From the IMG/VR virus record IMGVR_UViG_3300029305_006219: a stretch of DNA of 64,000 bases; one strand, written 5' to 3'. The notes below the pieces were generated by a model, which saw only the letters and a list, made by a program, of their open reading frames with translations, ran no database searches and was not told the origin of the DNA. Shown here in pieces: positions 11,979-64,000 of this stretch; within the stretch, counting starts at the first letter, position 1; each line of letters begins with the position of its first letter. Made by a program: the position numbers and the translations under genes. Origin of the DNA: a virus.

Positions 11979-12866
11979 TTATTCTATATACCTCCAATAA
12001 TATCCATATGCTTTTCTTTGCTTTCTGGCAGCTGCGCAAATATTACTTTTATCTTGTAATCCTAGAGCTCTAGCTGCATCTGCTCCAGAGTCATATTCAG
12101 CAATTATGCTATTATCTAACGTGAGTTGTTGAATTCTTTTCTTAGGGCGTCCACTAGATAACTTATTCTAATAAATTTGTACCCACTCTTGGATATCTCT
12201 TTCATCTGCTTTGTATTTCCAAAGAAAGCCGTAAGCACTTTTCTATTTCTAAGCACATACCTAACTAATTGCTGTTTGTTGAAAACCATTAGCCCTGCCG
12301 CACTCTGAGGCTGATTCCCATTCTTGGATAAAATATCCATTTAAATCATACTGTAGTACAGGATAAGCACATCGTTTTGCTACTGCGCAACCAAATCTTG
12401 CGGCTATCTCTTCTCGTGAAATTCCTGCTCCTCTTAATCGAAGTCGGGCAGTTTTTTTTGAACAGCCTATTTTTTCAGCAATTTCTTTAATTAAAAGACC
12501 TTGATTCCAGCCATCAAGAAAAAGCTGAGTGGGATATAGAATCGCCCCTTGTCCTCCAAGAACTGCATTGTATCCATTATTAGGGTCGGTGCTGTCAAAA
12601 TATTCTATATAATACATTTCTCGCTCAAATCTAATTTCATCAGGGCATTTCTCTAGCGTTTCAATAATAAAATTTTGTTCTCCGTATTTTCGTATAGCAC
12701 AAGAAATATGATAATAATATCCATGATCACCTTCTTTAGAATGAGCCCTTCTTATATGTTCCCTCCACCTTGTCTCAACCCCTCGAATAGTTTCTCCTAT
12801 ATAAACTTTATTGTTTATTTGGTTGGTAATTTTATAAATATAAGCCATAAAATGCTCTCCTTTCAC
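11979..12866 (-). CDS. GIY-YIG homing endonuclease (HE2), 4 in-frame TAG
   Basis: MAYIYKITNQINNKVYIGET...R..H, then reading through TAGs at 12261-63, 12249-51, 12243-45, 12168-70 gives two C-terminal repeats KSAYGFLWKY and RKQRKAYGYYWRY. TAA at 11979-81 lies 3 nt before the dnaE ATG. ORF 12116..12340 in the other frame is spurious. Confidence 0.8.
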
Positions 12867-17753: not shown

Positions 17754-17999
17754 TTAAATGAAGATTAGCTCTCCCCCATAAGGACTGCACATGGGTTTTA
17801 ATACACAGGTAATCCATTCTTCATTAATCTTTGTGTTTAATTCGCCATCTACATAAATGGTGTTACATCTAGCACCAGGGCGCCCCATTAAGAGATAGCT
17901 TCGTGTACCTTTAATAATTGTAATTTTAGTGTTGTTGGTTAGAATAGTCTCTACCTTATTTTCTTTATCATCTAATAGAAAAAACATTATTCTTTTCAT
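17754..17999 (-). CDS. Hypothetical protein
   Basis: 81-aa ORF; ATGA overlap with recJ. Confidence 0.35.
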   Translation of the reverse strand: MKRIMFFLLDDKENKVETILTNNTKITIIKGTRSYLLMGRPGARCNTIYVDGELNTKINEEWITCVLKPMCSPYGGELIFI

Positions 18000-19792
18000 C
18001 AGAAATTATACCTACTTTCACCTGTAATTGCATATTCTTCGATAAATATCTGCGGACTTACCCAGCCATTATATTCATTCTTATTTGGCTTTCCAATGAT
18101 ATCCATTTCCACATAGCCTTGAGTGTTTTGAAGCTTCTCACACAAGTCATCGGGTGCGTTGAATAACATTATCGACAAGCGGTTGGGAAGAGTTATTTTA
18201 AGGGTCTTGTTTTTCTTTATATACACAGTTACCATATCTGCGGTCACTTTTAAGCCATCAATAGCAACGAATGATTCTTCCACATCCTTGCCCCAGATAC
18301 CATCAAGCTCAGCTATTTCAAGGATTTGATTAGGATCTACATTTGTATTGCGGTAGATGTAGTCTACATAATGGACTGGTTCAGATGCCATATTACGAAG
18401 CGCGCGGTCAGTCGATTCAAGAAAGAAAGGCACGTCCTCTGGAAGAATGCCTAAGCCAAACGCGCCTTGGTGTCCAGCCACATATTGGATAAGACCAGTT
18501 CCTTCGCAGATATCTTTGAAATTAGATACTTCTGCTTTATCGCAGCCTCGCGCTGAACCTTCGTAACAGAAATACTTGCGCGCATTAAGAGTGGGGGTTG
18601 CATCCATTTCTTTTTCGCGTTTTGTAAGTACGGCGCAAGGACGCTGATACTTACCCATTATTTTATTTGCGGCAAGACCAGCTACATTTGGCTCAACCTC
18701 GCCAGGTTCAAGAAGGAATAAAAGGACTTGATGATCCATCAGATTTTCCATAGTAATACGCTCTTCAAGTAATTCCATTGCTGCATCTTGAGCTTTCGTT
18801 TGGCGCGTCTTTACATTCTTACAAGTACGCACTGCTTGCGTCACTAATTGTTCAGTTTCACCCTGTTTATGCCCACGCTTTGTAGAGTATATATAATCAA
18901 AAGCCTTAAACTTTAAAAAGGATTTGAAAAGAAGCTCCTTTTCTTCTTCTTCACCACTACGCACCATAGCATTGACAAACGGCGCAATATACCAAGCAGC
19001 GCCATGTGGAGTAATCTTATCTCCAAGAGAATAGGCATTACTTTCAGCTATTGTTGCGATAAATGGATTGTGAATATTTTCTGCGCGGAAGCCCTTCATT
19101 ATAAGATGCTTTGTTTCTATTGACTGAAGCGACATCATATCCGCGGTATTCCCCAGCGCCACGAGGTCAAGATAATTCTGCGCATAATCAGTGTGCATAA
19201 GTGAATCAAGGTATCTGCAAAACTGCCACGTGATACCAACACCTGATAGTTGCTTATTTGGATAGGCGCAAAGCTGATTATTTATGACTATTGCATTTGG
19301 AGATACAATATCCGCTTCATGGTGGTCTAAGACAATAATATCTACACCTTTGTCGATAAAAGCTAGGTGATATTCATAGTCATTAGAGCTTGCGTCTGGG
19401 CACAAGATTAATGCGTAATTGGCGGCCGCCCATTCAACATCGACATCACTAAGTCCGTGTTGTTTGCCGCTATGAATAAACCAGTCTAAGTTGTTCTGAA
19501 CCCAAGCTGGGAAATGGTCATAAAGGTAATTGATTAGAAGCGCGGACGAGGTAAATCCGTCGCAGTCTGAGTCCACGATAACCAGCGCTCGGGCGCCTTG
19601 AGAAATCGTTTTTATTAAGGTTTGAGCTGCCTTGCGCAATCGATCGGCGCCCAATAAGTTAAAGTCATTAATATCCGCATCCGTTGTATTCAGCCAGTGA
19701 TGGATATCATAGTAGGGAATACCTCTATTGGTTAGCACCTACTCTACTGCTGAATAGTGCGGATTTATATTTCCTAAAAGTTTATAGTTCAA
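17999..19792 (-). CDS. recJ: RecJ-like DHH-family ssDNA exonuclease, 1 in-frame TAG near the N-terminus
   Basis: DHH motifs VIVDSDCDGFTSSALL and VLDHH. The conserved N-terminal VLTNRGI block lies just downstream of TAG 19739-41. Upstream residues LNYKLLGNINPHYSAVE continue in frame from a TTG at 19790-92 with an AAAGGA RBS. Start choice is uncertain (alternative is GTG at 19738). Confidence 0.65.
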
Positions 19793-19801
19793 TTCACAAT
19801 C

Positions 19802-20554
19802 TCATCCTTTCTTTAAATAATTTTCTACATCTTCAATAAACAACCAATGATAACCATAGCCTTTAGTTTCACCTTTATTACGACAACTTCTACGAATGTG
19901 AGAACCATCTGTTTTTCCTAGTGCTCGAGCAGCGGTTTGACTTGATGAATACTCTTGTTTGGTTTCTATGCAATATACTGGTTTACTATTGGTTTTAACT
20001 GAATTTATTCGCATTTTATCTAATTTAATTTTTTCTTCTTCTTTATGACTATCCCAGTATACACGAGATGCCATTCTTCCTTTTAAGGTATTATTTTTTC
20101 GTTCTTCAAAAGAAGAATTTTCTATATATTTTACATTAATTTCCTTTAAAAATACTTTCTTTTCTTCTTTTTTATCTTCTGGTAAATTTTGCCAAGTATT
20201 TTTAGAAGCAATACCAATTTTCTTTTTAGTTTCTTCTGTGTGCAAATGTCCAAGCTGACCTCCTTTTGTTAAATTATATCCAAAATCAGGATTGTCACTT
20301 TTATAAAATTGGATATAAAATTTTTCCCAATAATCAGCTTCATTTTGACTTAGCAAGTTTTGTTTTAAAATTATATGCTCAAAATTATCCCATCCATATT
20401 TTTCAATGGCAGAATAAAAAAGAGGGCTTTTAATATATTGCTTTCCATTAGCTCTCCATCTCTACTTTATATTACAGCTTTGTCCTATATATCTTTTCTA
20501 ATTTTGCTTATTAACATGAGCATAGATACACCATTTTTTAATATTTTCATTCAT
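19802..20554 (-). CDS. GIY-YIG homing endonuclease (HE3), 2 in-frame TAG
   Basis: MNENIKKWCIYAHVNKQN[TAG]KRYIGQSCNIK[TAG]RWRANG...YGWDNFEHIIL then ORF 19802..20356, ending in a C-terminal CRNKGETKGYGYHWLF repeat. Note the genomically encoded Q in YIGQS. TAGs at 20498-500 and 20462-64. AAAGGAGG RBS. Confidence 0.8.
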
Positions 20555-25700: not shown

Positions 25701-26690
25701 TACCCTCTTTTTCAAGATATTTTAATGGGAATAGACTATATCTTCATCCATTTTAAACGGTGGATGTCATGCACTTCGATTTAAAGGATTTTCACCTACT
25801 TTTATATTATTATAAAAGCCCTACTCCTGTTGAGGAAATTTCATCCTCCAGTGGGATAGTCGTTGAACCTTCTCCTATTCGGAGCTTGGCTGCTGATTGC
25901 CCAATTTAATCAATTTTTAACATTCGCACTTAGATTTCTTTCATTCTTATGCTGTAGTTTGATTAACTCTAAGGGGTTTCCAGCAATTCACATGATTTGC
26001 TTAATGGATTGCTCCATTAAGGGCCTTATATATTTCATATTTTCGTCTCAACCGAGAGGCCTCGGTTGAATGTTCATAAATTTTATTTAAAATTTGTACA
26101 ACTGCAGCGCCTTCTTTATGAATTTGATAAGCAGAGGTTCCACAAGGACTTACTTTATTATCAAACTCTAAAATTTCTAGCATTTGTTTTGTGCAGATCT
26201 CAGTTTGACTGACAAAACTTAAACTAGGAATATTGTTTCTATCTTCTCTAATGTGAATACTACCATCTGCATCTAGCAATCCTCTTGCAAAATCATAAAT
26301 ATATTCATTAGGAATGTTTTCAAGGGGAATACTAAAAATAGAGGTTTTTGCAGGTACTATATTATATTGTGCTAAATAACGTTTTAACTCTGCCGAGTTT
26401 ATAGATACAGTTAAAGCATGACATCCAGTGTTATTAGTACGCTCTGTAATGGGCGCATTAGATTCAAAGAATGCTTGTAAATTTTCAAGCTGCTCTCTAT
26501 CTATATCTTTTAACTCAACTCTTACTCTGGCTTCATTTTTAGCTACATTTCCATCTCCAGCTAAAAATCCAAGCCAATAATATTTTTCATGAGGGTCTAT
26601 TTTAATGTTTGTTAAATTTAAAGGATATTTTCTCAAAAAACTTTCAACTCCTTCTTTAAGAGAGCGAAAATATGAAATAAAAATGTTAAG
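25700..26690 (-). mobile_element. Group I intron interrupting the AAA_24 ATPase gene and carrying a LAGLIDADG endonuclease ORF
   Basis: Minus-strand core elements: P-like AATTGCTGG (about 25950), Q-like AATCAGCAGCC (about 25890), R GTTCAACGACTA (25849-25860), S AAGATATAGTCT (25726-25737). Upstream exon ORF ends at a TAA at 26686. Boundaries are approximate. Confidence 0.6.
26001..26636 (-). CDS. Double-motif LAGLIDADG homing endonuclease (intron-encoded)
   Basis: LGFLAGDGNV and ARGLLDADGSI motifs. TTG start with an AAGGAG RBS. Confidence 0.75.
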   Translation of the reverse strand: MRKYPLNLTNIKIDPHEKYYWLGFLAGDGNVAKNEARVRVELKDIDREQLENLQAFFESNAPITERTNNTGCHALTVSINSAELKRYLAQYNIVPAKTSIFSIPLENIPNEYIYDFARGLLDADGSIHIREDRNNIPSLSFVSQTEICTKQMLEILEFDNKVSPCGTSAYQIHKEGAAVVQILNKIYEHSTEASRLRRKYEIYKALNGAIH

Positions 26691-27252
26691 CCATACGGTT
26701 TACAATATTACGAGGTTTATTATCAAGAGTAGGAACAATCTGATTATACTCATTGCCATTTTGATCCTTAAAGGTTTTGTCTTGCGCGTGAGAAATAATT
26801 ACTAAGCCGTATCCTAATTGAAGGATTGAACGAAGCGCGCTATCAAACTCTTGCGCTGCCATTTTGAAGCCCTTTCCGTAACCAATGTCACCGATGCTAT
26901 CGACGCCTATAGAGCCATCTGGACGAACTGCATTGGCGCAAATATATTTCTCACAATAGTCATAGGCTATATCAGCTGTATCAAGGATAATAGTTTCGAA
27001 TCTAGCTTTAACCTGTTCATTCTTTAACTGGCGCAAGAATTTTTTAAACTCAGACCAACTATTAATAGGTTGTGCCATGGCGCCGGGAATTGCATTATAT
27101 CCTTTTTCAAAAGCCGCCAAAAGATGATTAGGGAATTTAGTCGCGGTAGTAGTTTTACCGGTCTTTGCGTCTCCATAGAAGAAGACGCAATAACCGCGCA
27201 TATCTCTTGAAACCTAATGAGGCTAAATATCAAGTAAATTAAAATCTGCCAT
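26690..27252 (-). CDS. AAA_24/Sak4-like ATPase, 5' exon, 2 in-frame TAG
   Basis: MADFNLLDI[TAG]PH[TAG]VSRDMRGYCVFFYGDAKTGKTT (Walker A) ...ISHAQDK. TAGs at 27223-25 and 27214-16. RBS AAAAGAGG. Confidence 0.6.
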
Positions 27253-30308: not shown

Positions 30309-31598
30309 CATTAATTTTGACTATTTTTTACTGTAATTTTTATTACAGGAAACCATTTCGGCATTTAAAGTACTTCGTTTCCTAAAATACTACTATGTGC
30401 TAATAATAGCCCTACTTCCCCGCCCATAAGGCCTAGGGAATAGTCGATACAGGTTTTTCAATTAATCCATTATTTTCTAGCAGGATAATCATAATCTTTA
30501 AGAATATAAGTTTTTCCTAAATTAATATTACTTATAGTTGAACGCCCTATGTTATATTGTGCACCAATATTATCCATAGAAGTATTAGTATTACGTAACA
30601 GATCTAAAATATTCTAAACATCCTCTAAAGTTAAATTATGATTATTGCGAATGTTTTTTGCTCTAATAGGATAACTATATTTCCCTATTTCTGCAAATTT
30701 TCTTCCATTATTAATGTCTCTTAATACCCTGATTGGAATATTATATTTAATATCTATACCACCTTGAATTGGTAAATCCCAACGATACAATAAATCTTCT
30801 TTTAAATTAACTAGCTCTTCTTCGGAGGAAAAATAATCTAAAACTTCTGTCTTACACGCTGAGTCATGATTATTTTTTCTTAATGGGTAAACTAAGTTTG
30901 GATTAACATAGGTTCTACCTGTTGAAATATTTAATATAGTACCTTGTCCTACTCCATATTTATTACCTATCTCTGTTAAAGAAAACTCTGTATGATTAAT
31001 TAACAAATCAATTATTTCTTTAAGTTGATTTTCATTTAAAGCTGCATTAGGATTTTCAGTCCCTCGTTTCCCCGAAGCGTCTCCTCCTCGGGTTTTATTG
31101 TATCCGTGTCCATCTTTAATATAGGTTTTATAAAAGGAAATCCAATATCTTTCTTTATCATCTAATAACGATAAGTCAGAAACTGTTTCAAGTAATTCAA
31201 ACTCATCAATAATAATATTGTATTCTTTCATTTTTTGCTCACACAATAGAAGTTCTCTTGAACCATGTCCAGCTTGACTATAAGAATTATGCTCCATAAG
31301 TCTAGCTCGAATATTTTGAGCCTATCCAATGTAAGCTTTTCCGTTTGGGTAATTAATTTTATAAATTCCGCTAATAATGTCATTTGGTGTCATCTTAGAT
31401 AAAAATAATTTTTGCATTTTATGCCTCCTATAATGTTATATTCATCAGTTGTTCATATATATATTATTTTTATGGAAGATGGATTAATCAAAATTTCCCA
31501 CGAGATTGTATTTTATTAAAAAATATTTTCCTCGTTAGCCACTATAAGTTAGCGACCCCTAGCAGCTACTAGGTAAAGTTTTTCATCGGCCAACATTG
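30309..31598 (-). mobile_element. Putative group I intron carrying GIY-YIG HE4, inserted in GIY-YIG HE5
   Basis: 5' exon ends ...YIGQAGT, followed by an in-frame stop VNVGR*. Intron ends in G before exon 2 CAACATT. R-like TCGACTAT and S-like ATAGTCAA lie in the 3' 170 nt. Boundaries are proposed, not proven. Confidence 0.45.
30470..31417 (-). CDS. GIY-YIG homing endonuclease (HE4) with tandem C-terminal HTH repeats, 2 in-frame TAG
   Basis: MQKLFLSKMTPNDIISGIYKINYPNGKAYIG[TAG]AQNIRARL... then ORF 30614..31297. The TAG at 30614-16 reads through into a second HTH repeat DNIGAQYNIGRSTISNINLGKTY before TAA at 30470-72. GGAGG RBS. Confidence 0.75.
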
Positions 31599-32566
31599 AC
31601 CGCTTGTCCGATATAAGATATACCAGAGTCAATGTGTGTTATCTTATATATTCCACTGGCGCCCAACGCACCTACGCGCGCCGCAAGGTCATTGACTTTA
31701 TCTCTATAGAAAGTAGTCCATATAAGCATACGCAAAGGTCTTGCTTCGCGTAGATTATATTCAATACTTTGAAGATATGCCACGTCTCGCTTATCTGCCT
31801 CATTAAGTTGAAGAGTATAAAATGTTGCTTGATTTTTAATTTCTTCTTCACGAAGTTGTGCTTCCATTGTGGCGGCCTTGGTTGCACGAATTTTTTCTAG
31901 CTCTTTGCGGATTGAGTCTAGGTCGGCGCGCATTGCCGCCTCTTCTTCTTGTAATTCTTTAGACATTGACTATTGCTTATCATAAAATAATTGCACAAGA
32001 GTGTCAATATCTTGACGTCGCTCTTCAATTAATCCTTTTTCTCTTGCATCAAGTTCTTGAAGTCTGTCAAAATATAATTGATCAAGAGTGTCCACTTCAA
32101 TATCGAACTCTTGTTCGCGTTTTTGATATTCATAATCAAGAGTCTCACAATATTGTTCAAAGGAGGCGAGCGCAGCTGCCTTTAAGTCACCTGACATTGT
32201 CTCTACAGAGCTGCTGAAAGCAGCAATTTGCGCCTCAATTCCTGCTTTTTCAATTTGCTTATTTTGAATTTCATTTATTAACAACAATTTCTATTGAGTT
32301 AATTGATTTAATTCGTCGTAAGAATTTTTTGTTTTTTTACAGTTCTCTTCATATTTTTGAGAAATTTCATTGTTAGATTTTATCAATAAGTTATTTTGTG
32401 CTTCTAAGCTTTTGCGAGTTGCTTGTAATGACTAATTGAGTTCTTCTAGTTTCTAATTTTCTTCTGCTGTATAGCGATTAGCTTTTACAGATGTGGCTTT
32501 AACCCATACTCCATAAGCAAGACCGCTCACACCAAGAAGAATTGATATTACGCATAATACTATCAT
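31583..32566 (-). CDS. Membrane-anchored coiled-coil protein whose C-terminus is the 5' exon of GIY-YIG HE5, 4 in-frame TAG
   Basis: N-terminal TM helix MIVLCVISILLGVSGLAYGVWV, then a long coiled coil. ORFs 31970..32287 and 31583..31966 are joined by TAG 31970-72; further TAGs at 32453-55, 32432-34, 32291-93. Ends GASGIYKITHIDSGISYIGQAVNVGR*. Confidence 0.5.
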
Positions 32567-32948
32567 CTTTACAATTTAAGGGGTAATTGCATAATTACCC
32601 CTTATTTTCCTTTTTAATTAGTCTTCCGTTGCCTCAGGATCAAAACATTTTCCCGTTTCAGTTAGACGGATATATTTTACCTTACCGCCAGTTACAGCAA
32701 CCTCTTCACGATAAATAAGATCGTGGTGTCTTGCCATTGCTGTGAGGCATCCATTTACAGACTTTACACCGATACCAGTTGCTTCTGAAATATCCTATGC
32801 AGTAAAGTCCTCTCCATCATGCTCTCTTACATAGTTAAAAATTGTGAGTGAATTGTCTTTTAAAGCCATTGCCTTAATTCTCCTTTTATATCTTAATATT
32901 TGCAGTTTTTTATTCTCTGCTATTGTTATTATAATTATATAATAAATT

Positions 32949-40519: not shown

Positions 40520-41002
40520 TTATATTATATTTAAGCGGAACATTCTATATCCTTCAACCATTATTTTGAATTTAACATATAATTCAGATAACGAATATGC
40601 TTCCAGCGCTGGATCCTTAAGAGGGAAAACGGGCGCACAAGTGGAATACCCATTTTCAGTCAAAAAATTTCTAAAAGCATTTTCGATTCGGTCGAGACGT
40701 TCGCCTTCAATCCGAACAGCTTCTTCAGTATAAGGGGTGTCATAAAAACCTGTATCTATTGTCATATAGTATTTTTTATCAGCTCGATTATAATAAATAT
40801 ATGCATCATCCCAAGAGCAGAACGAAGGTGTAATTATAGGGTTTGTATTATATCCCCATATAAATTTATTATCTAACATATTAAATTCATCGTCGCGCCA
40901 GTCCGGATAAAGGCGCACGCATCTTGCTTTTTCGCGCTTCATGCTTTTGCCTATACGACGAAATTCTTTACGTAAATAGGCATCTAATTTTTGTTTATTC
41001 AT
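40520..41002 (-). CDS. Hypothetical protein
   Basis: 160-aa ORF. Confidence 0.3.
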   Translation of the reverse strand: MNKQKLDAYLRKEFRRIGKSMKREKARCVRLYPDWRDDEFNMLDNKFIWGYNTNPIITPSFCSWDDAYIYYNRADKKYYMTIDTGFYDTPYTEEAVRIEGERLDRIENAFRNFLTENGYSTCAPVFPLKDPALEAYSLSELYVKFKIMVEGYRMFRLNII

Positions 41003-41062
41003 ACTTACTCCTTGTTAATAATGGTAAAGCTCCTTTGATTCTCTCAAAGGAGCTTCTCTATC

Positions 41063-41137
41063 TGGCAGGGGAGGTAGGAATCGAACCTACGTCTGTGGTT
41101 TTAGAGACCACGGTCTTGACCTTTCGACGACTCCCCA
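41063..41137 (-). tRNA. Amber suppressor tRNA, tRNA-Gln-like, anticodon CUA (reads UAG)
   Basis: Minus-strand sequence UGGGGAGUCGUCGAAAGGUCAAGACC GUGGU CUCUAAA ACCAC AGAC GUAGGUUCGAUUCCUAC CUCCCCU G CCA. The anticodon stem is 5 bp Watson-Crick and the loop is CUCUAAA. U1.U72, G2-C71, G3-C70 and the G73 discriminator follow the bacterial tRNA-Gln pattern. It closely parallels the tRNA-Gln(UUG) at 62245-62316. Confidence 0.75.
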
Positions 41138-41272
41138 GTATAAGTAATGAGGTGGCTGTTTATTAATATTTTACCTGTCGAAATTTAAGTTGTCAGGCGG
41201 CACCTTTCACACACCACTTTTTTCATTTCTTAACTCATTACATTTATATTATATACAAATTTTTTAGTTTTG

Positions 41273-41794
41273 TCAAATAAAGAAATCAATTGATTGTCTA
41301 AGTGGATCGTCATCTGGTTTAAACCAATATTCAATAAGCTCTTTATATTTCTTATGATTGCCAGTAGCTAAGGCATCTGCTAATTCATTACCTATATCAC
41401 CTGAGTGCCCGTCGCATTTGTGAACTTCTGCGTTGAAAAATGGGCGCGAAATGTAACTCCATATTGCTTTCATCAAATCGATATTTTCTACTTCTTGCTT
41501 TTTTGAGTTACGCCATCCATTAGCCGCCCATGTCCGCATCCAAGAGTTGCAACTATTGACAACATAAGCGCTATCAGAATAAATAATAAACTGGTCATTT
41601 GGATGAGACTCTACATATCCAAGGGCGCAAATCATTGCCTTTAACTCCATACGGTTATTGGTTGTATGATCTTCAGTGTCGTGCTCAGTGAAAATAATCT
41701 CAGTTTCATTTTCATTCATCACGATCATTCCCCAGCCACCTGGGCCCGGATTAAATCTTGCACTTCCGTCTGTGTATATATGATATTTAGCCAA
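41273..41794 (-). CDS. rnhA: Ribonuclease H (RNase HI type)
   Basis: Motifs YTDGSARFNPGPGGWG...NNRMEL...YSDS...; TTG start with a GGAG RBS. Confidence 0.8.
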   Translation of the reverse strand: MAKYHIYTDGSARFNPGPGGWGMIVMNENETEIIFTEHDTEDHTTNNRMELKAMICALGYVESHPNDQFIIYSDSAYVVNSCNSWMRTWAANGWRNSKKQEVENIDLMKAIWSYISRPFFNAEVHKCDGHSGDIGNELADALATGNHKKYKELIEYWFKPDDDPLRQSIDFFI

Positions 41795-49313: not shown

Positions 49314-49730
49314 TCATAGTAGTTTCTCCATTTCCGACACATCAACGCCTTTGCCGCGAAGATTGTCGATGCACTCTTTCAAGTATTCATCGTTATGTTC
49401 GGGATAAATGATTTTACTCATTTGGTTTGCATCCATCCAAATATTAGATAATACTGTGGTATCAACCCAGTTAATATCATGTTGTAAAACATTTCCTCTC
49501 CAGTTAGGATCTTCCCAAATGAGATCAGGGTGATATCCTCTTTTCTGCATTTCCATCATAATGTGCCAATGATATGCAACCAATAGTTCAGGTCTATGAG
49601 TAAACACATAATCAACTGTCGCATGTTTCTTACCCCAACCTTTACCTCTTAAAGCGGCACATTCGCGATGTTGACCTAGCAATTGTTGTCTAGGAAGGTA
49701 GGGTATTAGTTTTTGATGCCAGAGTCTCAC
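49314..49730 (-). CDS. Pyrimidine-dimer DNA glycosylase (T4 endonuclease V/DenV-like)
   Basis: N-terminal MRLWHQKLIPYLPRQQLLGQHRECAALRGKGWGKKH resembles T4 endoV [27 protein letters not shown]. Confidence 0.45.
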   Translation of the reverse strand: MRLWHQKLIPYLPRQQLLGQHRECAALRGKGWGKKHATVDYVFTHRPELLVAYHWHIMMEMQKRGYHPDLIWEDPNWRGNVLQHDINWVDTTVLSNIWMDANQMSKIIYPEHNDEYLKECIDNLRGKGVDVSEMEKLL

Positions 49731-50353
49731 GCTTTTATCCCCCTTATTTCAAATCCATAACAAAATAACTTTTCAACATCAGGTTGAACAGCTATTGTTT
49801 TAATCTTTTTACGCATTTTTTTACTTTCAAATTCTGCGCCCATCTGTTTTTTAATAAGCGTAAGCGCTTCTGTGATGGCTATGTCACCATTTTTTACTGT
49901 AAATTTATTTTTTACTTTACTTGAGGCGGGCGCATTTCGAGGAATAATCTCAAAAGCATCATATTTTTGACCGTAAGGACAACCTGCAGAAACTATTTCT
50001 TTTGAGTTGTCAATTTTGCCAATAAAATCCATCTTTGCGCGTTTAATATTTTCTTCATAAGTTACCCACTCAAGATTTTCTAAGCTATTATCTCTTTTAT
50101 TATGATTTTTGTGATCAACAGTAAGATTTTCAGCCTCATCCGTGGGGCGCTAAGTAAGCATCACTAAACGATGAGCAAGTATTTTCGTGCAAGTTGTGCA
50201 ATCAACTTTAACACAACAATACCCTTTCTGACTTATTTTAATAGGCAAATCGGCTTTATCTCTATTACGAAAGCGCCCATGCGTTGATACATAAACACCA
50301 TAATCTTTATTAAATTTCCATCTTTCAAAGTGAATTTTAAGTGTTGGCAACAT
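49727..50353 (-). CDS. HNH homing endonuclease, 1 in-frame TAG
   Basis: ORF 50150..50425 (GYCCVKVDC...AHRLVMLT) reads through TAG 50150-52 into LTVDHKNHNKRDNSLENLEWVTYEEN (the HNH core) and ORF 49727..50032. The upstream M at 50425 lies inside the repeat module; ATG 50351-53 is preferred. Confidence 0.7.
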
Positions 50354-50455: not shown

Positions 50456-51556
50456 TTAATTGTAACCATTATTTCTTGTATGCTCGATATCTATTGTAAA
50501 TGCTTCTTTATAAATATCTTCCATTTTATTTGGTTTAATATTATATTGTTCTCTTAGCTCTTCTAAATGCTTATTGTAAATAGATATTATATCTTCTTGT
50601 TCAGCAATTTTTTCACGAAGAGCTTTAGCTTCTGTTGCATGAGTATAAAATTCTTCCTCAGAAAGATCTCCTTGGATATATTTTATTGTCTTATAGTCTT
50701 TTTTGGCTAAACTTTTTTTATAATTATCTATTTTTTGCTTTGCAATATTAATTTGTCCAAAAGTAGGTGCGGCAGCGGTTAAATAATCTTTTTCATCAAT
50801 TTCAAGACGACGACCTTTATCATAAATTTCTCCCGTAGCTTTAAAAAATTCTAATTCTTCAGGAGTTAGTTCAGAAAATGCTTTTGTCCAACGATAATAA
50901 GCATTTATTTTATCGTTGGGAAAATGTCCTACTAAAACACCGTTAGCAAAATATAAATTATTTTCAACTATAAGAATATAGCTCTTACGATTGATTGAGT
51001 CTGCTATAGTTGCTTTTTTTACTAAAGTTATTTCAGCTCCGTCAAGACCACAGCCTTTATCTCCTACTTTCCATATTTTACTTCCTACTACTTCATTTTT
51101 CTTTGCAGAAAAAATTGTATGGCTTTGACGAATCTGTAACAAAGAACCGTTATCAAAAACGAAAGTTTCCCATCCTCTTGTTTGAGCAGTAACAAAAGCT
51201 CCATAGCATTTTGCATTGATATAGGTTTTGGTAAGTGGGTCCCAACTTTTAACATAGTCTCCATAACGAACATCGCAAATTTTTTTAGAGCTTCCATCCA
51301 TCATAAGGATATCGGTATCTTCTTTGAGACAAGTCATTCCTTCAACATAATCTATATTATCAATAATATTGTTTAAAATTGTTTCCAAGTTTTTGGAAGA
51401 TGTCGTAGATCCCCACGAATCTTTACAAGAAATAGAATTTGGAAGTGTTATATTAGTACTAAATTCCGCTGTGTTGTTAGCAATAGTCAAAACTACATTG
51501 CCTGAATTGTCAAGAAGTTTCCAACCATTGTTTGTGCTTTTCATTAATGTTGCCAT
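50456..51556 (-). CDS. Hint (Hedgehog/intein-like) domain protein, possibly structural
   Basis: CLKEDTDILMMDGSSKKICDVRYGDYV ... LIVENNLYFANGVLVGHF has an intein N-terminal and C-terminal splicing-block pattern. ATG at 51554-56 with an AAGGAG RBS is preferred over the upstream M. Confidence 0.45.
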   Translation of the reverse strand: MATLMKSTNNGWKLLDNSGNVVLTIANNTAEFSTNITLPNSISCKDSWGSTTSSKNLETILNNIIDNIDYVEGMTCLKEDTDILMMDGSSKKICDVRYGDYVKSWDPLTKTYINAKCYGAFVTAQTRGWETFVFDNGSLLQIRQSHTIFSAKKNEVVGSKIWKVGDKGCGLDGAEITLVKKATIADSINRKSYILIVENNLYFANGVLVGHFPNDKINAYYRWTKAFSELTPEELEFFKATGEIYDKGRRLEIDEKDYLTAAAPTFGQINIAKQKIDNYKKSLAKKDYKTIKYIQGDLSEEEFYTHATEAKALREKIAEQEDIISIYNKHLEELREQYNIKPNKMEDIYKEAFTIDIEHTRNNGYN

Positions 51557-51639: not shown

Positions 51640-54477
51640 TCACGAGTTATAATCGTTGTTTGCTATTATCATATCAGTTAGTTTTACAAAACCCTGAGAC
51701 ATTGAGTTGATGTCGACGTAAAACTGATTATCATAATAATTTGTATCGATAACCTGATTATATTCATCAACATAAAATCCGCTTGTGTTATATGGAGTGT
51801 TAATCCACTCTTGCCAAGTCATACCTTCTAAGGCGGTGTATGATGCTCCGTTAACGGTAAAGGTAATTATAGGCAATGTTCTTGTAAGAGTATATGTGTG
51901 ATTTGCTACGATTGTATCACTTGTTTTAACATATTTATATATGATGTTACCATCCTCATCTTCGTCTTCTCTCAAACATATAAGATTTCCCGTCATGTCC
52001 TCACAAACATATCCAGGTATCAATGGATCACTCCAATAATTTTCAGAAGGAACATAGTAACTGCCGTCGCTGGCGTTCATAAAATCAGCCCAAGTCATAC
52101 CCTCGGTGACTGTATATGATTCATCTCCTGCATCGTTACCGTCAATATAGAATGTTATTGTGCTAGGTGTTGGCTCTTCTTCGTTTTCAAAATTAAAGTA
52201 AATATCTATTTGAGTATCTGTTGAAGTCGTATAATCAATTGTAAGGTTATTGTTTTCAATATCGATAGAGTTAATATTTGAAGTTAAATTATCAATACCA
52301 TTTAAGGTTATTAATTCATTGTTCTACGAACCCATATTTATTGTTTTAGTATTTTCAGTTGCAAGAAGCTCTATTGATATTGGGCTTGTTATTTCTACTT
52401 CAATCCCTACAGCATCGATATAATAGTTACATCTTCCTATAATAATATCCAAATCACGACAATGTCTACCGCTACCATCATTAAGCCATACTGCGCCGAT
52501 ATATCCATCTCCATCTTCATCGATAATAGATTCTGCTACACAGTTTTCTTCTCCGTTAACAGTAAGAGAGTTCCAAATAACAAAATCCTTTGTATTATAC
52601 GCGCTATCGCACCATTCATACCACGTCATACCAGGCTCAGCCATGTATGTTATTCCTTCAATAGTGAAAGTGATTTCAAGTGTAATATATGAATCATCTA
52701 TATAATATACACCATTTTCTGTAATTGTATCATTATAAGATACCATCATCTTGATATCATCGCTATTGTAGTATACTGCGCCGATATATCCATCTCCATC
52801 TTCATCAGTTGCAGATGTTGCTATTAAGTCTTGATTATATGAGCTATTATAAGGAACAAAACCTGCTTTATTATATGAGCTATTACACCAATCGCTCCAA
52901 ATCATATTCCTATTAGATGTGTATTCTGTTCCATTAATAGTAAATGTTATTGTACTTGTTTCGTTTTCAAAACTAAAGTAAGCATCTATTTGAGTGTCGG
53001 TTGAAGTTGCATAATTAATTGTAAGTTCATTATTTTCATTAATATTAATAGAGTTGATATTTGAAGTTAAATTGTCAATACCATTTAATGTTAATCTATT
53101 CTATGAATCTATATTTACTGTTTTAGTATTTTCAGCGGCAAGAAGCTCTATTCTCATTGGACTTGTTGTTCCTGCTGGTATGTCTCCAATTGTGTATGTA
53201 TAATTTGCCATAATAAGACTACTTGGGAAAACTGGCTTACTACCATCATTGCAATATACCGCTACTTGTGATCCCTCTTCTACCACAAAACCATCTTGAA
53301 TAATATAGTATGTACCATATTCACTATTCACCCAGTCTTGCCAAGTCATACCTTCTTCAAATCTATAGAACTCGTCTCCCGTTAGATTATCTTCGATATA
53401 AAATATTGAGGTTGAAATAGGTAATGAATCTGAAACTATATATGAATGATTTATTCTAATAACATCACTGGGTTTAACAGCAGTGTACTCATTTAAAAGC
53501 ACATATCGACCTGTAGAATTTTCTATTATATAATCATTTTGAACTACATATTCTGCATCATCATTACTTGAAATACTATCAATCCATTCTTGCCAAGTCA
53601 TACCACTCTCGGCGAAATATGATTCTTTTTGCATATCATTTCCTTCAATATAAAATGTTATCATACCTACAATATAATCTCTATAAACACTCCAATTTGT
53701 TGCTGCTTTCCAATCATCAACAAGTTCATAGGGAACTCTAATTTTACAATTTGAAGGAATGTTTAAAAAAGCACTTGTATTAGCAAGAGTTGGTATACTT
53801 GTATGAAAAGAAAAATCGTAATATTGCATTGAAGTACAGTTGGCAAATGCGCTTGATCTAATAGTTGTAACGCCATTAGGAAAATTCATTTGTGTAAGAG
53901 CCTTACACCCATAAAAAGCTTGCTCTCCAATTGCTGTAATATTACTAGGTAGAGTTATGCCTGAAAGAACTTTACAACCGCTAAACATGCGATATCCAAT
54001 CCAGGAAATATTACTGGGTAAAGATATATCTATAAGAGATGTACAATTATAAAATGCTTCATCTCCTATTTTTGTAATACTATCGGGTAGACTTAAACTC
54101 TTAAGCTTAGCACAATTAGTAAAAACACCTACTCCAAGTTGTGTAATAGTGTTAGGAATAATTATATTTGCATTTGACTCAAGTCCATGACAATTTGAAA
54201 AAGCATAATCACCAATATAAGTAATATTATTTGGTATATTTATTTTTGTAAGATATGTGCAGCCCTCAAAAGCAGCTCGTCCTATTTTTGTTATATTAGC
54301 TAAATCCTGTGTAGTTATTTCAGTAATTGTTCTATCAATTATTTTAGCTAGTTTACTTTGTTCTTCTGTATCTGCATTTAAAGCCGTTACAATAATATCA
54401 CGATCGCAATATTTACCTGCTGTTTTTAAACGAATGGAAGATCCGCTTGTTACATTTATATTATGTTCAGCCATCAT
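51640..54477 (-). CDS. BspA-type leucine-rich-repeat tail fiber/receptor-binding protein with C-terminal tandem repeats, 2 in-frame TAG
   Basis: ORFs 53101..54477, 52324..52905 and 51640..52098 are one frame joined by TAG 53101-03 and TAG 52324-26. LRR_5 repeats (NITYIGDYAFSNC...). Repeated (R/S)IELLA(A/T)ENTKT(V/I)N(I/M)(D/G)S and GMTWQEW blocks. Confidence 0.6.
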
Positions 54478-54999: not shown

Positions 55000-57480
55000 T
55001 TATTCTTTTGAAGCCTCTACAATATTTTTCATTGTTTTCTCAAGGCTGGTTCCACGAAGCAGAGTGTTCCATGTCTCAGCGAGAGATTCACCCTTAGCCA
55101 TAGCGGCAGGCGCGAGGTTTTTGCCAAGTCCATTCATAATCTCTGCATTTGCCTGAGACTCAAGTGCTGCTACAAGATCAGGGCTAATTGCCGCAAATAT
55201 CTTAGCAACGTTGTCTGCATATGCCTTCTGTTTTGCTTCTTCTATTGCAGCAAGCTGCTTCTCAGTTGCGATCTTGGCATCATCTGCCGCCTTATCACGA
55301 GCAAGCTGTGCTTTCTGAATTGCATCGAAGATAGGCTGCATATCAGACTTGGCAGTAGCTTCAGCTGTTGCCTCAGCACGCTTCATAGCGGCGATCTCCG
55401 CCTGATTCTTTAGCTTTTCTTCTTCAGCCTTCTGGTTAAGCTCAAGCGCATACATCTTATTCTGGTGATTAAGTTCTGCCTCTTCACGATCGAATTTAGC
55501 AATCTGCTTAACCATTTCAGATTTACGAGTAGCATCAGAGAGTTCAAGAGTTTTCTGAATCATTTCCTTCTGGTGTGCTTCCATCATCTTAGCGACTTGC
55601 GCCTCAACCTGAACATTGAGAACTTCAACATCAGTTACAAGCATACCATTTTCTTTAAAGAGTCTTCCGTTATGAGGCGCCTGATCAGTTTCTGCTTTAG
55701 CTACATTGCCAAGCGCAGTGTTTCTGATGATGTCTGCCGCTTTTGCGTAGAACTCTTCAATATTATACTTCTTAGCTTCGCGCTTAAGGAGACTGCGCAT
55801 TCTGTCACACATATGTTTTACATAGTTATCTACAGAGAACCACTTATCCTTATATTCGGGAAGGAAGTTTACATTATAGGAGAGAAGGAACTTAACATCA
55901 ACAAAGTCCTTTGTCTGAACACTGATGATATCAGATACCTTATTATTGTCAATACGGAGATATGCAGTCTGAATCAGATTGTCTGTTGTCTTAGGCTTAC
56001 CTGTTGAAAGATTTACAATTTCAAGAGTCTCATCATACTCAAGGAGTCGAGTAGCAGGACCAATGATTGTCTCTCTCTTACCAGACTTGGATACAACATT
56101 TACTGCATAGCCAGTCCATACATTGATAGCAACAACTCCATCATACTTTGTATCAAGCACAATAGTACGAGGCTTTGTATAAGATACACCGCGCGAAATA
56201 TTAGCGGTTGCCGCAAAAATCGCAAGAGCATCATTTTGATTTGCAGTGCTATATGCATTATTAATTATGTCTGTCTTGTTAGACTTACCATTGCGCGCAT
56301 CGCGCTCAGCCTTTGCTTCAGAAAGACCGAGGTTATATTCAAGCGCCTCACGGTTGCCAGGATAGAAAGTTTCGCACTCCTTAACAGAAAGTACTCTCTT
56401 AACAACTACCTCAAAACGAGGATCAGGAAGATACATAGCGGGACCCTTGACCATCTTAACAGTTCCCTTAATTCTATCAAGGATATAGCGTCCTTCGCCC
56501 TCAGGAATTGCTATTGCATGATGCATATACTTACCGTCATACTGAATAAGTGCGTGCTCAGGGCGAGGATAGTAAATCATCTGATTATTACCTGTAATAA
56601 AGAGTTCTTCGCCAACAGGATGCTTAACTCCATTCTCTGTATATTCTGCGATAACCTTTACATAAATACCGCTAATAGGCGAAAGTTCAAGTGCGCGGAA
56701 TATTACGCCCTTCTGAGGGGTCTGTACGAAGGTCTGTGTAGGTGTAGGGAATACAACCTTGGGTCCATGAGCATAGACCTTTTCACCGTTTTCATCTTTA
56801 AGGATACAATACTCAAGGCGCTCAAGGGTGACTGCATCGCGCACATACTCAGAAGAGTTATCTTCACAAGCGAGAACTTCAATACCCGTAGGAGGAATAT
56901 AGAAAGATACTTCAGTACCCTTGATTACAAGTTGCTGACCTGTAAAGTAGGTCTCTTTCTTAACGATCTCTTTACCTTCTGCATCGAGAATAGTTGCGGA
57001 AGCAGCGTTCTTGGCGGCTGCCACTGCGTCATAAACGCGAGCAATGAGGTACTGGTTAGAACGAAGCTTATGTCCTCGAATAACTTTTGCCATCTGACCA
57101 GGGAATAGCGCAAAGGAAGCAGGTCCAGAAATATTAACCTTAATACCAATTTTCATATTATCGGGAGTAACATTCGACTTACCTGCAAGAGGGTATACAC
57201 CATCTGCCGTAGGGTTCTTGAGAATCACATACCAACCCTCGGGCGCCGATACAAATAGCTGTTTTGCTCGCTCGAAGTCTTTTACTTCATCGAATTTCTT
57301 TGTCTTATTGTTGAAAATAACACAAGTCTGCTGCTGAGAAATAGTTACCATAGCAGGTCCTGCATAGGTTCTAATCTCACCGTTAGTGCAGTCCTGAATC
57401 TGGACGTATTCATTGACTGCAAGTACAAGGTCGCGTGTGCGACCTCTATTGTCATTTGCATTGTAATTAAAATCATTCAT
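55000..57480 (-). CDS. Large flotillin/MVP-like SPFH-domain coiled-coil protein (function unknown, possibly structural)
   Basis: 826 aa. C-terminal Ala/Glu/Lys-rich coiled coil typical of the flotillin/YqiK C-terminus. No TAG. Confidence 0.35.
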   Translation of the reverse strand: MNDFNYNANDNRGRTRDLVLAVNEYVQIQDCTNGEIRTYAGPAMVTISQQQTCVIFNNKTKKFDEVKDFERAKQLFVSAPEGWYVILKNPTADGVYPLAGKSNVTPDNMKIGIKVNISGPASFALFPGQMAKVIRGHKLRSNQYLIARVYDAVAAAKNAASATILDAEGKEIVKKETYFTGQQLVIKGTEVSFYIPPTGIEVLACEDNSSEYVRDAVTLERLEYCILKDENGEKVYAHGPKVVFPTPTQTFVQTPQKGVIFRALELSPISGIYVKVIAEYTENGVKHPVGEELFITGNNQMIYYPRPEHALIQYDGKYMHHAIAIPEGEGRYILDRIKGTVKMVKGPAMYLPDPRFEVVVKRVLSVKECETFYPGNREALEYNLGLSEAKAERDARNGKSNKTDIINNAYSTANQNDALAIFAATANISRGVSYTKPRTIVLDTKYDGVVAINVWTGYAVNVVSKSGKRETIIGPATRLLEYDETLEIVNLSTGKPKTTDNLIQTAYLRIDNNKVSDIISVQTKDFVDVKFLLSYNVNFLPEYKDKWFSVDNYVKHMCDRMRSLLKREAKKYNIEEFYAKAADIIRNTALGNVAKAETDQAPHNGRLFKENGMLVTDVEVLNVQVEAQVAKMMEAHQKEMIQKTLELSDATRKSEMVKQIAKFDREEAELNHQNKMYALELNQKAEEEKLKNQAEIAAMKRAEATAEATAKSDMQPIFDAIQKAQLARDKAADDAKIATEKQLAAIEEAKQKAYADNVAKIFAAISPDLVAALESQANAEIMNGLGKNLAPAAMAKGESLAETWNTLLRGTSLEKTMKNIVEASKE

Positions 57481-62244: not shown

Positions 62245-62316
62245 CGACCTGGGGTGGCTGGATTTGAACCAGCGGGTGTCAGAGTCAAAGTCTGATGCCT
62301 TGCCACTTGGCTACAC
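62245..62316 (-). tRNA. tRNA-Gln (UUG)
   Basis: UGGGGUG...anticodon loop CUUUGAC...GCUGGUUCAAAUCCAGC CACCCCA G. U1-A72 and G73. CCA is not encoded. Confidence 0.8.
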
Positions 62317-62561
62317 CCCAATAATATCTTAATTACATTAACTAATAGGAGTGATTTGCACTATTCCAAAGGCGATTACTCAACCTTCCTCCTTTAATCT
62401 TGTACAAGATTTGTGAACAACCTAAGTTACCGTTTCACTACGGAGTTAATGTTATTACGATTAGCGACCCCTTTCGGGCAATTTTGAATCGAGAATTTGT
62501 TGATGGAAACTCAGGTCAGGAGTTTATATTGCATCGCTTTATTTCTTACATATATATTATA

Positions 62562-63007: not shown

Positions 63008-63161
63008 TGGTGAGCCAAGCGAGATTCGAACTCGCGACCCCGTGATTAATGGTGCTTGAGGTTAGATTCGAACTAACAACCTAAAGCCGACTAAGCCCCA
63101 GACTTTACCAATTAAACATACTCAAACAAGTCACGTGCTCTTCCATCTGAGCTACTGGCTC
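63008..63161 (-). tRNA. tRNA-Lys (UUU) interrupted by a 78-nt insertion in the anticodon loop
   Basis: Exon parts GAGCCAG UA GCUC AGAUGGAA GAGC A CGUGA CUU | 78-nt insert | UUAA UCACG GGGUC GCGAGUUCGAAUCUCGC UUGGCUC A CCA. After removal of the insert the sequence closely resembles E. coli tRNA-Lys and the loop reads CUUUUAA. Confidence 0.6.
63050..63127 (-). other. tRNA-like insertion element (acceptor/T-arm minihelix with encoded CCA) inside the tRNA-Lys anticodon loop
   Basis: GUUUGAG...GUUAG UUCGAAU CUAAC CUCAAGC A CCA. The 7-bp acceptor pairing and T-arm are perfect. No canonical anticodon arm could be folded. Confidence 0.45.
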
Positions 63162-63169: not shown

Positions 63170-64000
63170 ATTTACTTAGTTAGCTTTTTGAATAGCTCTA
63201 TATTTTCGCTTGAGTTTATTGATTATATTTCCATTAGCGGCATCGCGCTAAAGAATACTAATACGATTAAGTATTGCAAGTTCTCTATTTATCATTTTGC
63301 TTTATTTCCTTTCTTATCTTTATTACATAAATATTATATCATATTTTTTAATAAAAATCAATGAAAACCTTTGGAGTTTGCTTTTGCCTAATGGTGGTTA
63401 GGACAAAAGCTCTCTGCAACTCATTTTTCTTTGCTACGAGTAAACACAATAGATTGATAGGTTTTTACTAAGCTACCTTCAAACTTAATGGTGGAGAATA
63501 TGAGTAACGATCTCATCTGAACTTCTGCTTGCAAAGCAGACGACCACTCCATGCAGTCCCATTCCCCATAGGAAAGAGAGGGAGAGTTTTTATATCCAAC
63601 AAGAGAATCACTCTCCAAACTCTGATGTTTTACGAGGCGCCGAGTAATGCTTGTTGGCAGCATCAAGGCGTTGATTTAAAATGGCAGAAAATGTCGGTGC
63701 TGCCCCGCTACTCCGCATCCCAAATGCGGTGTGTTACTGTTACACTACATTCTCTATATTCCAGCTTTTAGATGCGGGAAGCTGGGCCCGCGCCTTTCAT
63801 AGCCTTGTTGGATAAACCTGCGCTATTACTAAGCTATCTTTATAAATCTCGCACTTCATCTTGGAGGCGAAACTCCAGCGGATGTTTGGCCCACCGCTGC
63901 CTTTCGGATATAAGTCTCACCGAGTATAACCAGCACTGTTTATATAGCGTCTGCCGCCTCGCTCTCTACTCTCTCTGTTGATTAGGTGAGAGGAATATCC
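63170..64000. ncRNA. GC-rich non-coding block at the window end; candidate structured RNA
   Basis: No convincing ORF, high GC relative to the phage genes, and contiguous with the tRNA cluster. ORFs 63421..63666 and 63529..63981 look spurious. Confidence 0.2.

Follow-up and report, generated by a model that had tools for sequence, protein, structure and literature searches.

In this study, we found that a stretch of viral DNA of 64,000 nucleotides (IMG/VR record IMGVR_UViG_3300029305_006219, the whole of which is called the window here) carries a 75-nt tRNA gene with the anticodon CUA at positions 41063-41137 on the minus strand. This tRNA is genuine and of the canonical elongator type. Judging from its sequence and from the genes around it, it is very probably a phage-encoded amber suppressor that makes UAG glutamine during infection, as in genetic code 15. 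Glutamine decoding had already been proposed in a first-pass annotation of the window, and it was supported here by the residues that relatives have at the TAG codons, by a TAG at codon 892 of the anaerobic ribonucleotide reductase NrdD, where glutamine is invariant, by the alternation of TAG with CAA and CAG among close relatives, and by the Gln-like acceptor end of the tRNA.

ARAGORN called the gene at 41063-41137 (-), with cta at position 34 as the anticodon, as one of eight tRNAs in the window; its label for the gene was 'tRNA-Pyl', which is due to the CUA anticodon alone. The Rfam covariance model RF00005 matched 41066-41137 (-) from end to end (model positions 1-71) with a score of 58.9 bits and an E-value of 3.5e-10, above the gathering score of 29. 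The two programs thus agree on the 75-nt minus-strand tRNA that the first-pass annotation had described. The folded RNA reads UGGGGAG UC GUCG AAAGGUCA AGAC C GUGGU CUCUAAA ACCAC AGAC in its 5' part and GUAGG UUCGAUU CCUAC CUCCCCU G CCA in its 3' part, the CCA being encoded in the genome, and it has the 7/4/5/5 cloverleaf layout. On direct reading, the other structural claims of that annotation were all present: the anticodon stem of 5 bp (GUGGU/ACCAC), the loop CUCUAAA (C32-U33-C34-U35-A36-A37-A38) with the anticodon CUA, and the acceptor end with U1.U72, G2-C71, G3-C70 and G73. The anticodon loop has the features of an amber suppressor, with CUA at 34-36, seven nucleotides, U33 and a purine at 37. 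The nucleotides for tertiary contacts are also in place, namely U8, G18G19 within AAAGGUCA, U33 and U54-U55-C56 (UUCGAUU). The folding energy of the tRNA was not discriminated from background (z = -1.3), and folding energy is usually not discriminating by itself for tRNAs.

Relatives of the window were gathered from IMG/VR by back-translated peptide scans for the topoisomerase B subunit, NrdD, RNase H and the protein with a Major Vault Protein shoulder domain. These scans gave more than 200 loci of a large phage family, in which near-complete contigs are mostly 120-190 kb long. Among 80 topoisomerase loci, the tRNA was found at the syntenic place only in the closest one, L001, and probes for the close clade showed that each of the four close genomes (L001/L163, L161/L164, L162/L197 and L201; contigs 3300029305_004519, _005988, _006221 and _002985) has a tRNA(CUA) flanked by the same pair of genes. 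In addition, L214 is an independent assembly of the same phage from another sample, with 99.46% identity over 6.1 kb and an identical tRNA. The five suppressors of the clade have in common the loop CUCUAA(A/C), G2-C71, G73 and the encoded CCA, and elsewhere they are 25-40% different. Their first acceptor pair is always weak or mismatched (U.U, A.A, U-A, U.C and A.C), and at 3-70 three of them have G-C and two have C-G.

Covariation was measured on six tRNA(CUA) sequences, those of the window, the four syntenic close relatives and one sister-clade suppressor, which were realigned after the extra arms had been removed. Cloverleaf pairing was found in 90.5% of the cells; it was 65.8% after shuffling (0/500) and 38-50% with slid partners. 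In 17 of the 21 pairs there was compensatory change. A functional tRNA is strongly supported by these compensatory changes together with the shuffled and slid controls. The extra arms belong to two of the five suppressors (L161:10580-10678 and L201:20489-20585), which carry a hairpin of 24-25 nt in the variable region. Its loop is 7 nt long and has CUG, a Gln anticodon, at the anticodon-like position (cgcc-CUCUGAA-ggcg and ccuacgg-GUCUGCU-ccguagu), so that the hairpin may have arisen by duplication of the anticodon arm. In both tRNAs, it is the CUA arm and not the extra hairpin that Rfam aligns as the anticodon arm.

The first-pass annotation had also noted in-frame TAGs that require decoding. 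When open reading frames (ORFs) were defined with TAA and TGA as the sole stops, 82 ORFs covered 88% of the window, 54 of them ending on TAA and 28 on TGA. Over their 18,395 codons, the in-frame TAGs number 39 at most (2.1 per 1000) and fall in about 20 genes; the corresponding counts for the two other frames are 427 and 259. TAG makes up about 6% of CAA, CAG and TAG together. All 82 ORFs can terminate on TAA or TGA. TAG falls within the last 25 codons in 3/82 ORFs only, where the real stop is ambiguous, and for this reason TAG is rarely if ever used as a terminator. Simple counts of ORF length with different sets of stops gave no discrimination between codes. The TAGs lie in real genes with homology on both sides (RecJ, AAA_24, LRR_5, GIY-YIG and HNH_3, besides NrdD); in NrdD, the structure of the T. 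maritima enzyme (4COI) aligns across both TAGs with an E-value of 1e-126. It follows that gene callers must use code 15 here, since NrdD, RecJ and about 18 other genes are otherwise split. The genes that bear TAGs have accessory functions or encode homing endonucleases, the latter holding about one third of the TAGs. The large genes for Pol III alpha (1324 aa), both topoisomerase subunits, ligase, DnaB, the primase/Toprim protein and the sigma factor are free of TAG.

The amino acid was assigned by a column test similar to Codetta, in which the window proteins were compared by tblastn with all loci and log-odds were summed for each codon over the residues of the relatives; the tallies were restricted to minus-strand genes. 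As a control, none of the 60 testable sense codons of the window was mis-inferred, and in every genome tried the 57-61 testable codons were all standard. For TAG in the window, the test gave +19.2 bits for Gln, +1.6 for Lys and -16.9 for Glu, with Tyr and Trp strongly negative. The close relatives by themselves gave +17.5 bits for Gln. The clearest single site is NrdD codon 892 (TAG at 3646-3648), where 80 of 80 relatives have Gln, as does T. maritima. On average, the TAG columns (Q.33, K.24, E.08) resemble the CAA columns of the window (Q.42, K.14, E.09), unlike its GAG and AAG columns. When the TAGs of the window were compared with the four closest genomes, the partner was also TAG 16 times, and 13 of the 33 partners other than TAG were CAA or CAG, any other residue occurring four times at most. 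The reverse comparison, from the TAGs of the close genomes to the window, gave the same picture.

The acceptor end of the tRNA agrees with this assignment. In this phage family, the first nucleotide of tRNA-Gln(UUG/CUG) is U or A, its pairing with position 72 is weak or absent, and position 73 is nearly always G; U1.U72 itself recurs in the tRNA-Gln of L166/L198/L202. The tRNA-Glu of the family begins with G1 or C1, which is paired with position 72, and A73 is usual. The window suppressor follows the Gln pattern, and G10 is present. With covariance models built from 10 tRNA-Gln and 8 tRNA-Glu of the family, the Gln model gave the higher score for all five suppressors of the window clade, the difference being 4.4-17.9 bits. 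The isotypes were not separated by pairwise identity over the whole tRNA, as all values were near 0.7. Bacterial GatCAB has been reported to separate tRNA-Gln from tRNA-Glu by the first base pair (U1-A72 vs G1-C72) and by a supernumerary D-loop base, U20B (PMC2811023). The window tRNA has U at position 1, although mismatched with U72, and its G19 and A21 are separated by 2 nt. This spacer is 1-2 nt in the five Gln-type suppressors, compared with 3 nt in all three Glu-type suppressors of sister clades, which are described below.

The same phage has a canonical tRNA-Gln(UUG), to which the first-pass annotation had compared the suppressor. That gene is real; its position had been given as 62245-62316, which is 4 nt off, and it lies at 62249-62320 (-) according to ARAGORN and Rfam, with U1-A72, G2-C71, G3-C70 and G73 and no encoded CCA. 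The parallel holds for the Gln-like acceptor end and fails for the body of the suppressor, the D stem of which (GUC/GAC) is unlike that of the window tRNA-Gln.

Several observations speak against glutamine. Only 10 TAG columns of the window have at least 8 references each, and their score leans on one invariant column. At NrdD codon 553 the relatives have K 52 times and Q 19 times, and some TAGs face Tyr (codon 26 of a DUF3882-like ORF) or Trp (codon 68 of an HNH endonuclease gene). Such TAGs facing Tyr, Trp and Lys are expected, because these amino acids are one mutation away from TAG, and they look like nonsense changes that the suppressor makes tolerable. In addition, some of the 39 TAGs may precede the true start codons, e.g. 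those at 7943 and 1506. In the tRNA itself, the Gln model scored 54.5 and the Glu model 49.9 bits, a margin of only 4.6. The small margin is due to the Glu-like D stem, as G10-U11-C12/G23-A24-C25 occurs in no tRNA-Gln of the family and is found in two of its tRNA-Glu and in the Glu-type suppressors. The 4-nt variable loop is also like that of the Glu-type suppressors. Its length was rejected as a discriminator of Gln from Glu, as tRNA-Gln of the family also have 4-nt loops. Finally, A38 (not U38) and A36 deviate from the identity set of the E. coli glutaminyl-tRNA synthetase (GlnRS), reportedly that of Rould (1989) and of Jahn, Rogers and Soll (1991). The set consists of a weak or openable 1-72 pair, G2-C71, G3-C70, G73 and G10, with U35, G36, A37 and U38 in the anticodon loop. 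U35 and A37 are present, and A36 is unavoidable with an amber suppressor anticodon.

The same column test gave a different result in sister clades of the family. In contig 3300037400_003528 (L130/L186/L209/L212), TAG scored +59.7 bits for Glu vs -11.5 for Asp over 38 columns, and in contig 3300021399_000006 (L055/L124/L184/L230) it scored +52.7 bits for Glu over 23 columns. Five more loci (L090, L092, L095, L106 and L119) gave +15 to +39 bits for Glu. In these genomes Gln was strongly negative at TAG, and no sense codon was mis-assigned in any of them. Their TAG columns (E.36-.50, D.11-.19, Q.02-.08) are like their own GAG and GAA columns and unlike their own CAG and CAA columns. Borges et al. 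reported that only TAG-to-Gln and TGA-to-Trp had been observed in phages with a code unlike that of the host (10.1101/2021.08.26.457843), and we found no report of TAG-to-Glu in phages in the literature. From these alignments, TAG probably means Glu in the sister clades, which would be a reassignment unreported for phages.

The sister clades also have their own tRNA(CUA) genes. Those of the two best-supported genomes, at L209:18866-18941 and L230:1605-1677 (-), were found in tRNA clusters, each directly upstream of tRNA-Ser(GCU). A third of the kind is at L213:1-76, in a genome with few TAG columns, which are not informative on the amino acid. All three scored higher on the Glu model, by 8.9-19.1 bits, and their acceptor ends are of the family tRNA-Glu types (G1.U72, G2-C71, C3-G70 and A73, or C1-G72, G2.U71 and G73). 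They have the same anticodon loop CUCUAAA, and L209 and L213 nearly agree with the window tRNA in the D stem and anticodon stem. Several suppressors have in common the anticodon arm NNGGU-CUCUAAA-ACCNN; the arm of E. coli tRNA-Trp/Su7, which Yarus is said to have proposed as optimal for codons starting with U, matches it. The recurrence of this arm may be convergent rather than inherited.

In the same family, L088 and L110 have in-frame TGA at Trp columns (+83 and +30 bits), and about 50 other relatives look standard-code. ARAGORN also called tRNAs with the anticodon UCA ('SeC') in two relatives (L164:3640-3715 and L213:2186-2257) and with UUA in another contig (L211:179-253). The UCA tRNA of L164 was considered as an opal suppressor and rejected, since the alignable L164 genes have no in-frame TGA. 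In a neighbour-joining tree of the NrdD C-extein, which is a tree of one gene without support values, the window clade was a single Gln lineage among several Glu lineages, beside the TGA pair. A tentative idea, to which we give well under even odds, is that the window tRNA is the Gln side of a Gln/Glu amber split, in which a Glu-type suppressor body was re-tailored at the first acceptor pair and at one D-loop nucleotide, the two elements by which GatCAB distinguishes the isotypes. If this were true, UAG would change from Glu to Gln, in a Firmicute host that has no GlnRS, simply by admission of the Glu-charged suppressor to host transamidation.

The sister clades make it necessary to consider that the window tRNA, too, inserts Glu, being glutamylated by the glutamyl-tRNA synthetase (GluRS) and not amidated. 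The reading of TAG as Glu by members of the same family speaks for this, as do the small margin of the Gln over the Glu model and the likeness of the window tRNA to the one at L209:18866-18941, with which it shares the D stem GUC/GAC, a near-identical anticodon arm and the T-loop UUCGAUU. The codons point the other way, as the TAG columns of the window score -16.9 bits for E vs +19.2 for Q, the mean share of E in them is.08 vs.36-.50 in the Glu clades, and one TAG encodes an invariant-Gln site. The tRNAs also differ at the positions that matter, with U1.U72 and G73 in the window vs G1.U72 with A73, or C1-G72, in the Glu-type suppressors, and with a spacer between G19 and A21 of 2 nt vs 3 nt in all three of them. 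We therefore regard Glu in the window as improbable. Insertion of another amino acid (Lys, Tyr or Trp) or of a mixture appears slightly less probable again. The anticodon CUA is an ambiguous signal for several synthetases, Gln or Lys is frequently mischarged onto engineered amber suppressors of E. coli, and columns dominated by K, Y or W do exist, namely NrdD 553 (K 52, Q 19), codon 26 of the DUF3882-like ORF and HNH codon 68. However, K, Y, W, E, S and L are one-step neighbours of TAG and are expected at new TAG sites under any meaning of the codon, the summed log-odds are +1.6 for K and strongly negative for Y and W vs +19.2 for Q, and the close relatives mostly have CAA or CAG at the TAG sites.

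It could also be supposed that the TAGs are true stops in pseudogenes or split genes, and that the tRNA is a relic or has another role, such as read-through of host genes or countering a tRNA-targeting defence. TAG is indeed rare (2.1 per 1000 codons), and homing endonuclease genes, in which decay is frequent, hold about one third of the TAGs. Nevertheless, we consider this quite unlikely, as 16 TAG positions were kept as TAG between genomes that are widely different elsewhere, NrdD, RecJ and AAA_24 are homologous on both sides of their TAGs, almost no gene terminates on TAG, and the tRNA is at the same locus in five genomes with compensatory evolution. A pyrrolysine tRNA, which the ARAGORN label would imply, shares with the window tRNA only the CUA anticodon and is effectively refuted. 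The hallmarks of tRNA-Pyl are a 6-bp anticodon stem, a 3-nt variable loop, a short D-loop without G18G19, and pylS/pylBCD nearby. The window tRNA has a 5-bp anticodon stem, a D-loop of 8 nt with G18G19, a normal T-loop (UUCGAUU) and a 4-nt variable loop, no Pyl-related family was found among the scanned window ORFs, and the TAG columns are Gln-like rather than Lys-like. Glutamine thus remains the amino acid that we favour for the window.

A mechanism can be proposed on this basis. The tRNA(CUA) would be transcribed from its own consensus sigma-70 promoter, and the transcript would end at a hairpin downstream of the gene. No aminoacyl-tRNA synthetase and no release factor, including release factor 2, was found among the scanned ORFs of the 64-kb window, and because the window encodes neither, the tRNA would be charged by host enzymes. 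Such accessory genes of a code change (release factor 2, synthetase) are optional in the known code-15 cases. The weak U1.U72, G2-C71, G3-C70, G73, G10, U35 and A37 would fit recognition as tRNA-Gln, and this may occur by two routes. E. coli GlnRS opens the 1-72 pair, reads G2-C71, G3-C70, G73, G10 and U35, and readily accepts CUA anticodons; a host GlnRS, with this identity assumed, could charge the tRNA directly. To our knowledge, most Bacilli have no GlnRS. In a Firmicute host of this kind, a non-discriminating GluRS would load Glu, which GatCAB would amidate to Gln, and the indirect route would economically explain both the Gln and the Glu readings of UAG in one phage family. The charged tRNA would then outcompete release factor 1 at UAG. 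NrdD, RecJ, the ATPase, the LRR protein and most homing endonucleases would be full length only once the tRNA is present, and the TAG-free replication genes (Pol III alpha, DnaB, primase, ligase, topoisomerase II and the sigma factor) would be independent of it.

The TAG-containing genes described here are all on the minus strand. The NrdD gene (3184-6321) has TAGs at 4663-4665 and 3646-3648. It also harbors an intein of 379 aa at 4744-5880 (-), with Cys as the first residue, His-Asn as the last and Cys thereafter, which is placed just before the conserved CFAYDLK motif; most relatives are without it. The AAA_24 ATPase gene (26686-27252) has TAGs at 27223-27225 and 27214-27216, where the columns of the relatives are Q 11/E 5/K 3 and K 12/Q 11. 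The gene of the RecJ-like exonuclease (DHH, RecJ_OB; 17999-19801) has one at 19739-19741, near the N-terminus, and that of a large BspA-type leucine-rich repeat (LRR) protein (LRR_5; 51640-54477) has two, at 53101-53103 and 52324-52326, which lie at the equivalent position in two internal repeat copies. Four TAGs (627, 546, 339 and 330) are in the DUF3882-like ORF (193-702), three of which are also TAG in close relatives. Its match of 21.9 bits is slightly under the cut-off, and it is RuvC-like by motif alone. A small conserved ORF (32618-32869) has a TAG at 32795-32797, with Q 13, K 5 and A 2 in the column of the relatives. A coiled-coil ORF (31583-32566) has TAGs at 32455, 32434, 32293 and 31972, three of which are also TAG in contig _004519. 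The TGA end of this ORF comes right after a GIY-YIG-like N-terminal motif, GIYKITHIDSGISYIGQAVNVGR, and a complete GIY-YIG endonuclease gene (30470-31417, -) follows about 150 nt downstream. From the sequence, it seems that a gene with a nuclease domain was truncated here when an endonuclease gene was inserted.

Five GIY-YIG and HNH endonuclease genes hold 11 TAGs together, and the remaining TAGs include those of several small ORFs. A GIY-YIG/NUMOD homing endonuclease gene (6248-6988) has TAGs at 6859, in the YIG-Q motif, where five of seven relatives have Q, and at 6760. The complete GIY-YIG gene at 30470-31417 has TAGs at 31324, again in the YIG-Q motif, and at 30616. Two further ORFs are of the GIY-YIG type, one at 11979-12848 with TAGs at 12263, 12251, 12245 and 12170, its motif being read from the translation only, and one at 19802-20554 with TAGs at 20500 and 20464. 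The HNH_3 endonuclease gene (49727-50353) has a TAG at 50150-50152, which looks like a tolerated or rescued nonsense change, because the relatives have Trp (TGG) there.

The tRNA(CUA) gene is solitary, between the RNase H gene (41273-41794) and an ORF of 160 aa (40520-41002). On its strand, a promoter-like site TTGACA-17-TATAAT at 41248-41276 (-) agrees with the sigma-70 consensus in 12/12 positions; it begins just past the RNase H stop, about 110 nt upstream of the tRNA. A weaker site, CTGACA-17-TAAAAT (10/12), is at 41168-41196 (-), about 30 nt upstream. Both are putative promoters by their consensus match. A perfect 12-bp hairpin, AAGCUCCUUUGA-GAGAA-UCAAAGGAGCUU, can be read from the sequence at 41027-41055 (-), 7 nt past the CCA. 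It was not called by the terminator scan because its T-run is weak. A hairpin is also found at the equivalent place downstream of the tRNA in L001, L161 and L162, and this element is likely a terminator or a processing signal.

The window has 36% GC, with genes almost all on the minus strand, and by its predicted genes it is the replication and nucleotide-metabolism module of an uncultivated phage. The replication genes encode Pol III alpha, DnaB, a Toprim protein, an NAD-dependent ligase, a UvrD-like helicase and topoisomerase II subunits of the GyrB and GyrA/ParC types (by Pfam families and by tblastn matches to annotated gyrase B/topo IV B). Further genes encode RNase H, a phosphoesterase, a polynucleotide-kinase-like protein, the sigma factor, RecJ, NrdD, NrdG, a gp30.3-like protein, an isochorismatase, dUTPase, the AAA_24 ATPase and the BspA-type LRR protein, and a tRNA cluster lies at 59.7-63.8 kb. 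No structural or lysis genes were found within the 64-kb window.

Some other features of the window were observed. There is a group I intron at 25713-26068 (-) (Rfam, 78.2 bits), which is overlapped by a LAGLIDADG endonuclease ORF (26001-26699, -). The protein with the Major Vault Protein shoulder domain (PF11978, 91 bits) has 826 aa, is encoded at 55000-57480 (-), also has a vault repeat, and is conserved across the phage family. A free-standing ORF at 50456-51556 (-), which adjoins the HNH endonuclease gene, has a weak match to the Hint module (21 bits, below the cut-off). At 63011-63161 (-), Rfam gave a tRNA match of 151 nt, possibly an interrupted tRNA, which ARAGORN did not call; ARAGORN called a tRNA-Ala at 63489-63567 (-) that is not in the Rfam list, and a weak Rfam tRNA match at 63686-63754 (-) (35.7 bits) has no ARAGORN call.

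In a search of 15 kb against deposited phages for near-identical DNA, megablast gave no match, and the topoisomerase protein had at most 34% identity to deposited phages. As there is no close match among deposited phages, this phage is not phAss-1 or any other deposited genome. An exact 38-nt pattern of the tRNA had no match in IMG/VR, and a looser pattern of the anticodon arm was found in three contigs only. The phage would be a virus of gut or rumen bacteria. Members of the family have been binned into ruminant metagenome-assembled genomes (MAGs) as contigs of 120-140 kb, under the names Clostridia, Bacilli, Erysipelotrichaceae, Clostridium and once Endomicrobiaceae; these MAG bin names alone point weakly to a Firmicute host.

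The window adds one more documented case of stop-codon rewriting by a phage. More broadly, some genomes of one phage family use the standard code, and others read TGA as Trp, TAG as Gln or, apparently, TAG as Glu; across the family, the acceptor ends and D-loops of the suppressors track the inferred amino acid. The family is thus a natural, sequence-defined system for asking how a freed stop codon gains an amino acid. It also bears on whether Glu-to-Gln transamidation makes Gln and Glu interchangeable outcomes, which can be tested with few tRNA variants. The apparent TAG-to-Glu reading of the sister clades, with its tRNA-Glu-like suppressors, is the more interesting lead.

As a kind, the window tRNA is already known. 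E. coli supE (glnV44) is the amber suppressor form of tRNA-Gln, and the window tRNA is like it in CUA, U1 with a weak 1-72 pair, G2-C71, G3-C70, G73, G10, U35 and A37. Unlike supE, it is a natural gene and not a point mutant, and it has U1.U72 vs U1-A72, A38 vs U38 and the D stem GUC/GAC vs GCC/GGC. With tRNA-Pyl (pylT) it has only the CUA anticodon in common, the structural hallmarks and the Pyl machinery not being found in the window. Code-15 gut phages that read TAG as Gln with a suppressor tRNA(CUA) have been described in the crAss-like, Lak, Garnet, Amethyst and Agate clades (Borges et al., 10.1101/2021.08.26.457843; Peters et al., PMC9523058), and phAss-1 is another code-15 phage with such a tRNA (PMC10607447). 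Like these phages, the window phage has its own tRNA(CUA), TAGs at Gln positions, little if any use of TAG as a terminator, and a low GC content (36%); it also has no synthetase in the 64 kb, and charging by the host is presumed. The recoded genes include those of homing endonucleases, which has been reported for Agate too. The size of the relatives (about 120-190 kb), the ruminant origin, the endonucleases of group I introns and the co-occurrence of standard, TGA and TAG codes would also fit Agate, as judged from its published description. Unlike the known code-15 phages, the window phage has no sequence match to deposited phages, its tRNA is solitary in the replication module behind a consensus promoter and outside the tRNA cluster, its TAGs are in replication and nucleotide-metabolism genes, and its first acceptor pair is a U.U mismatch. 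The tRNA is therefore a new member of the code-15 phage suppressors, unrelated to them in sequence, in a phage lineage that has not been deposited.

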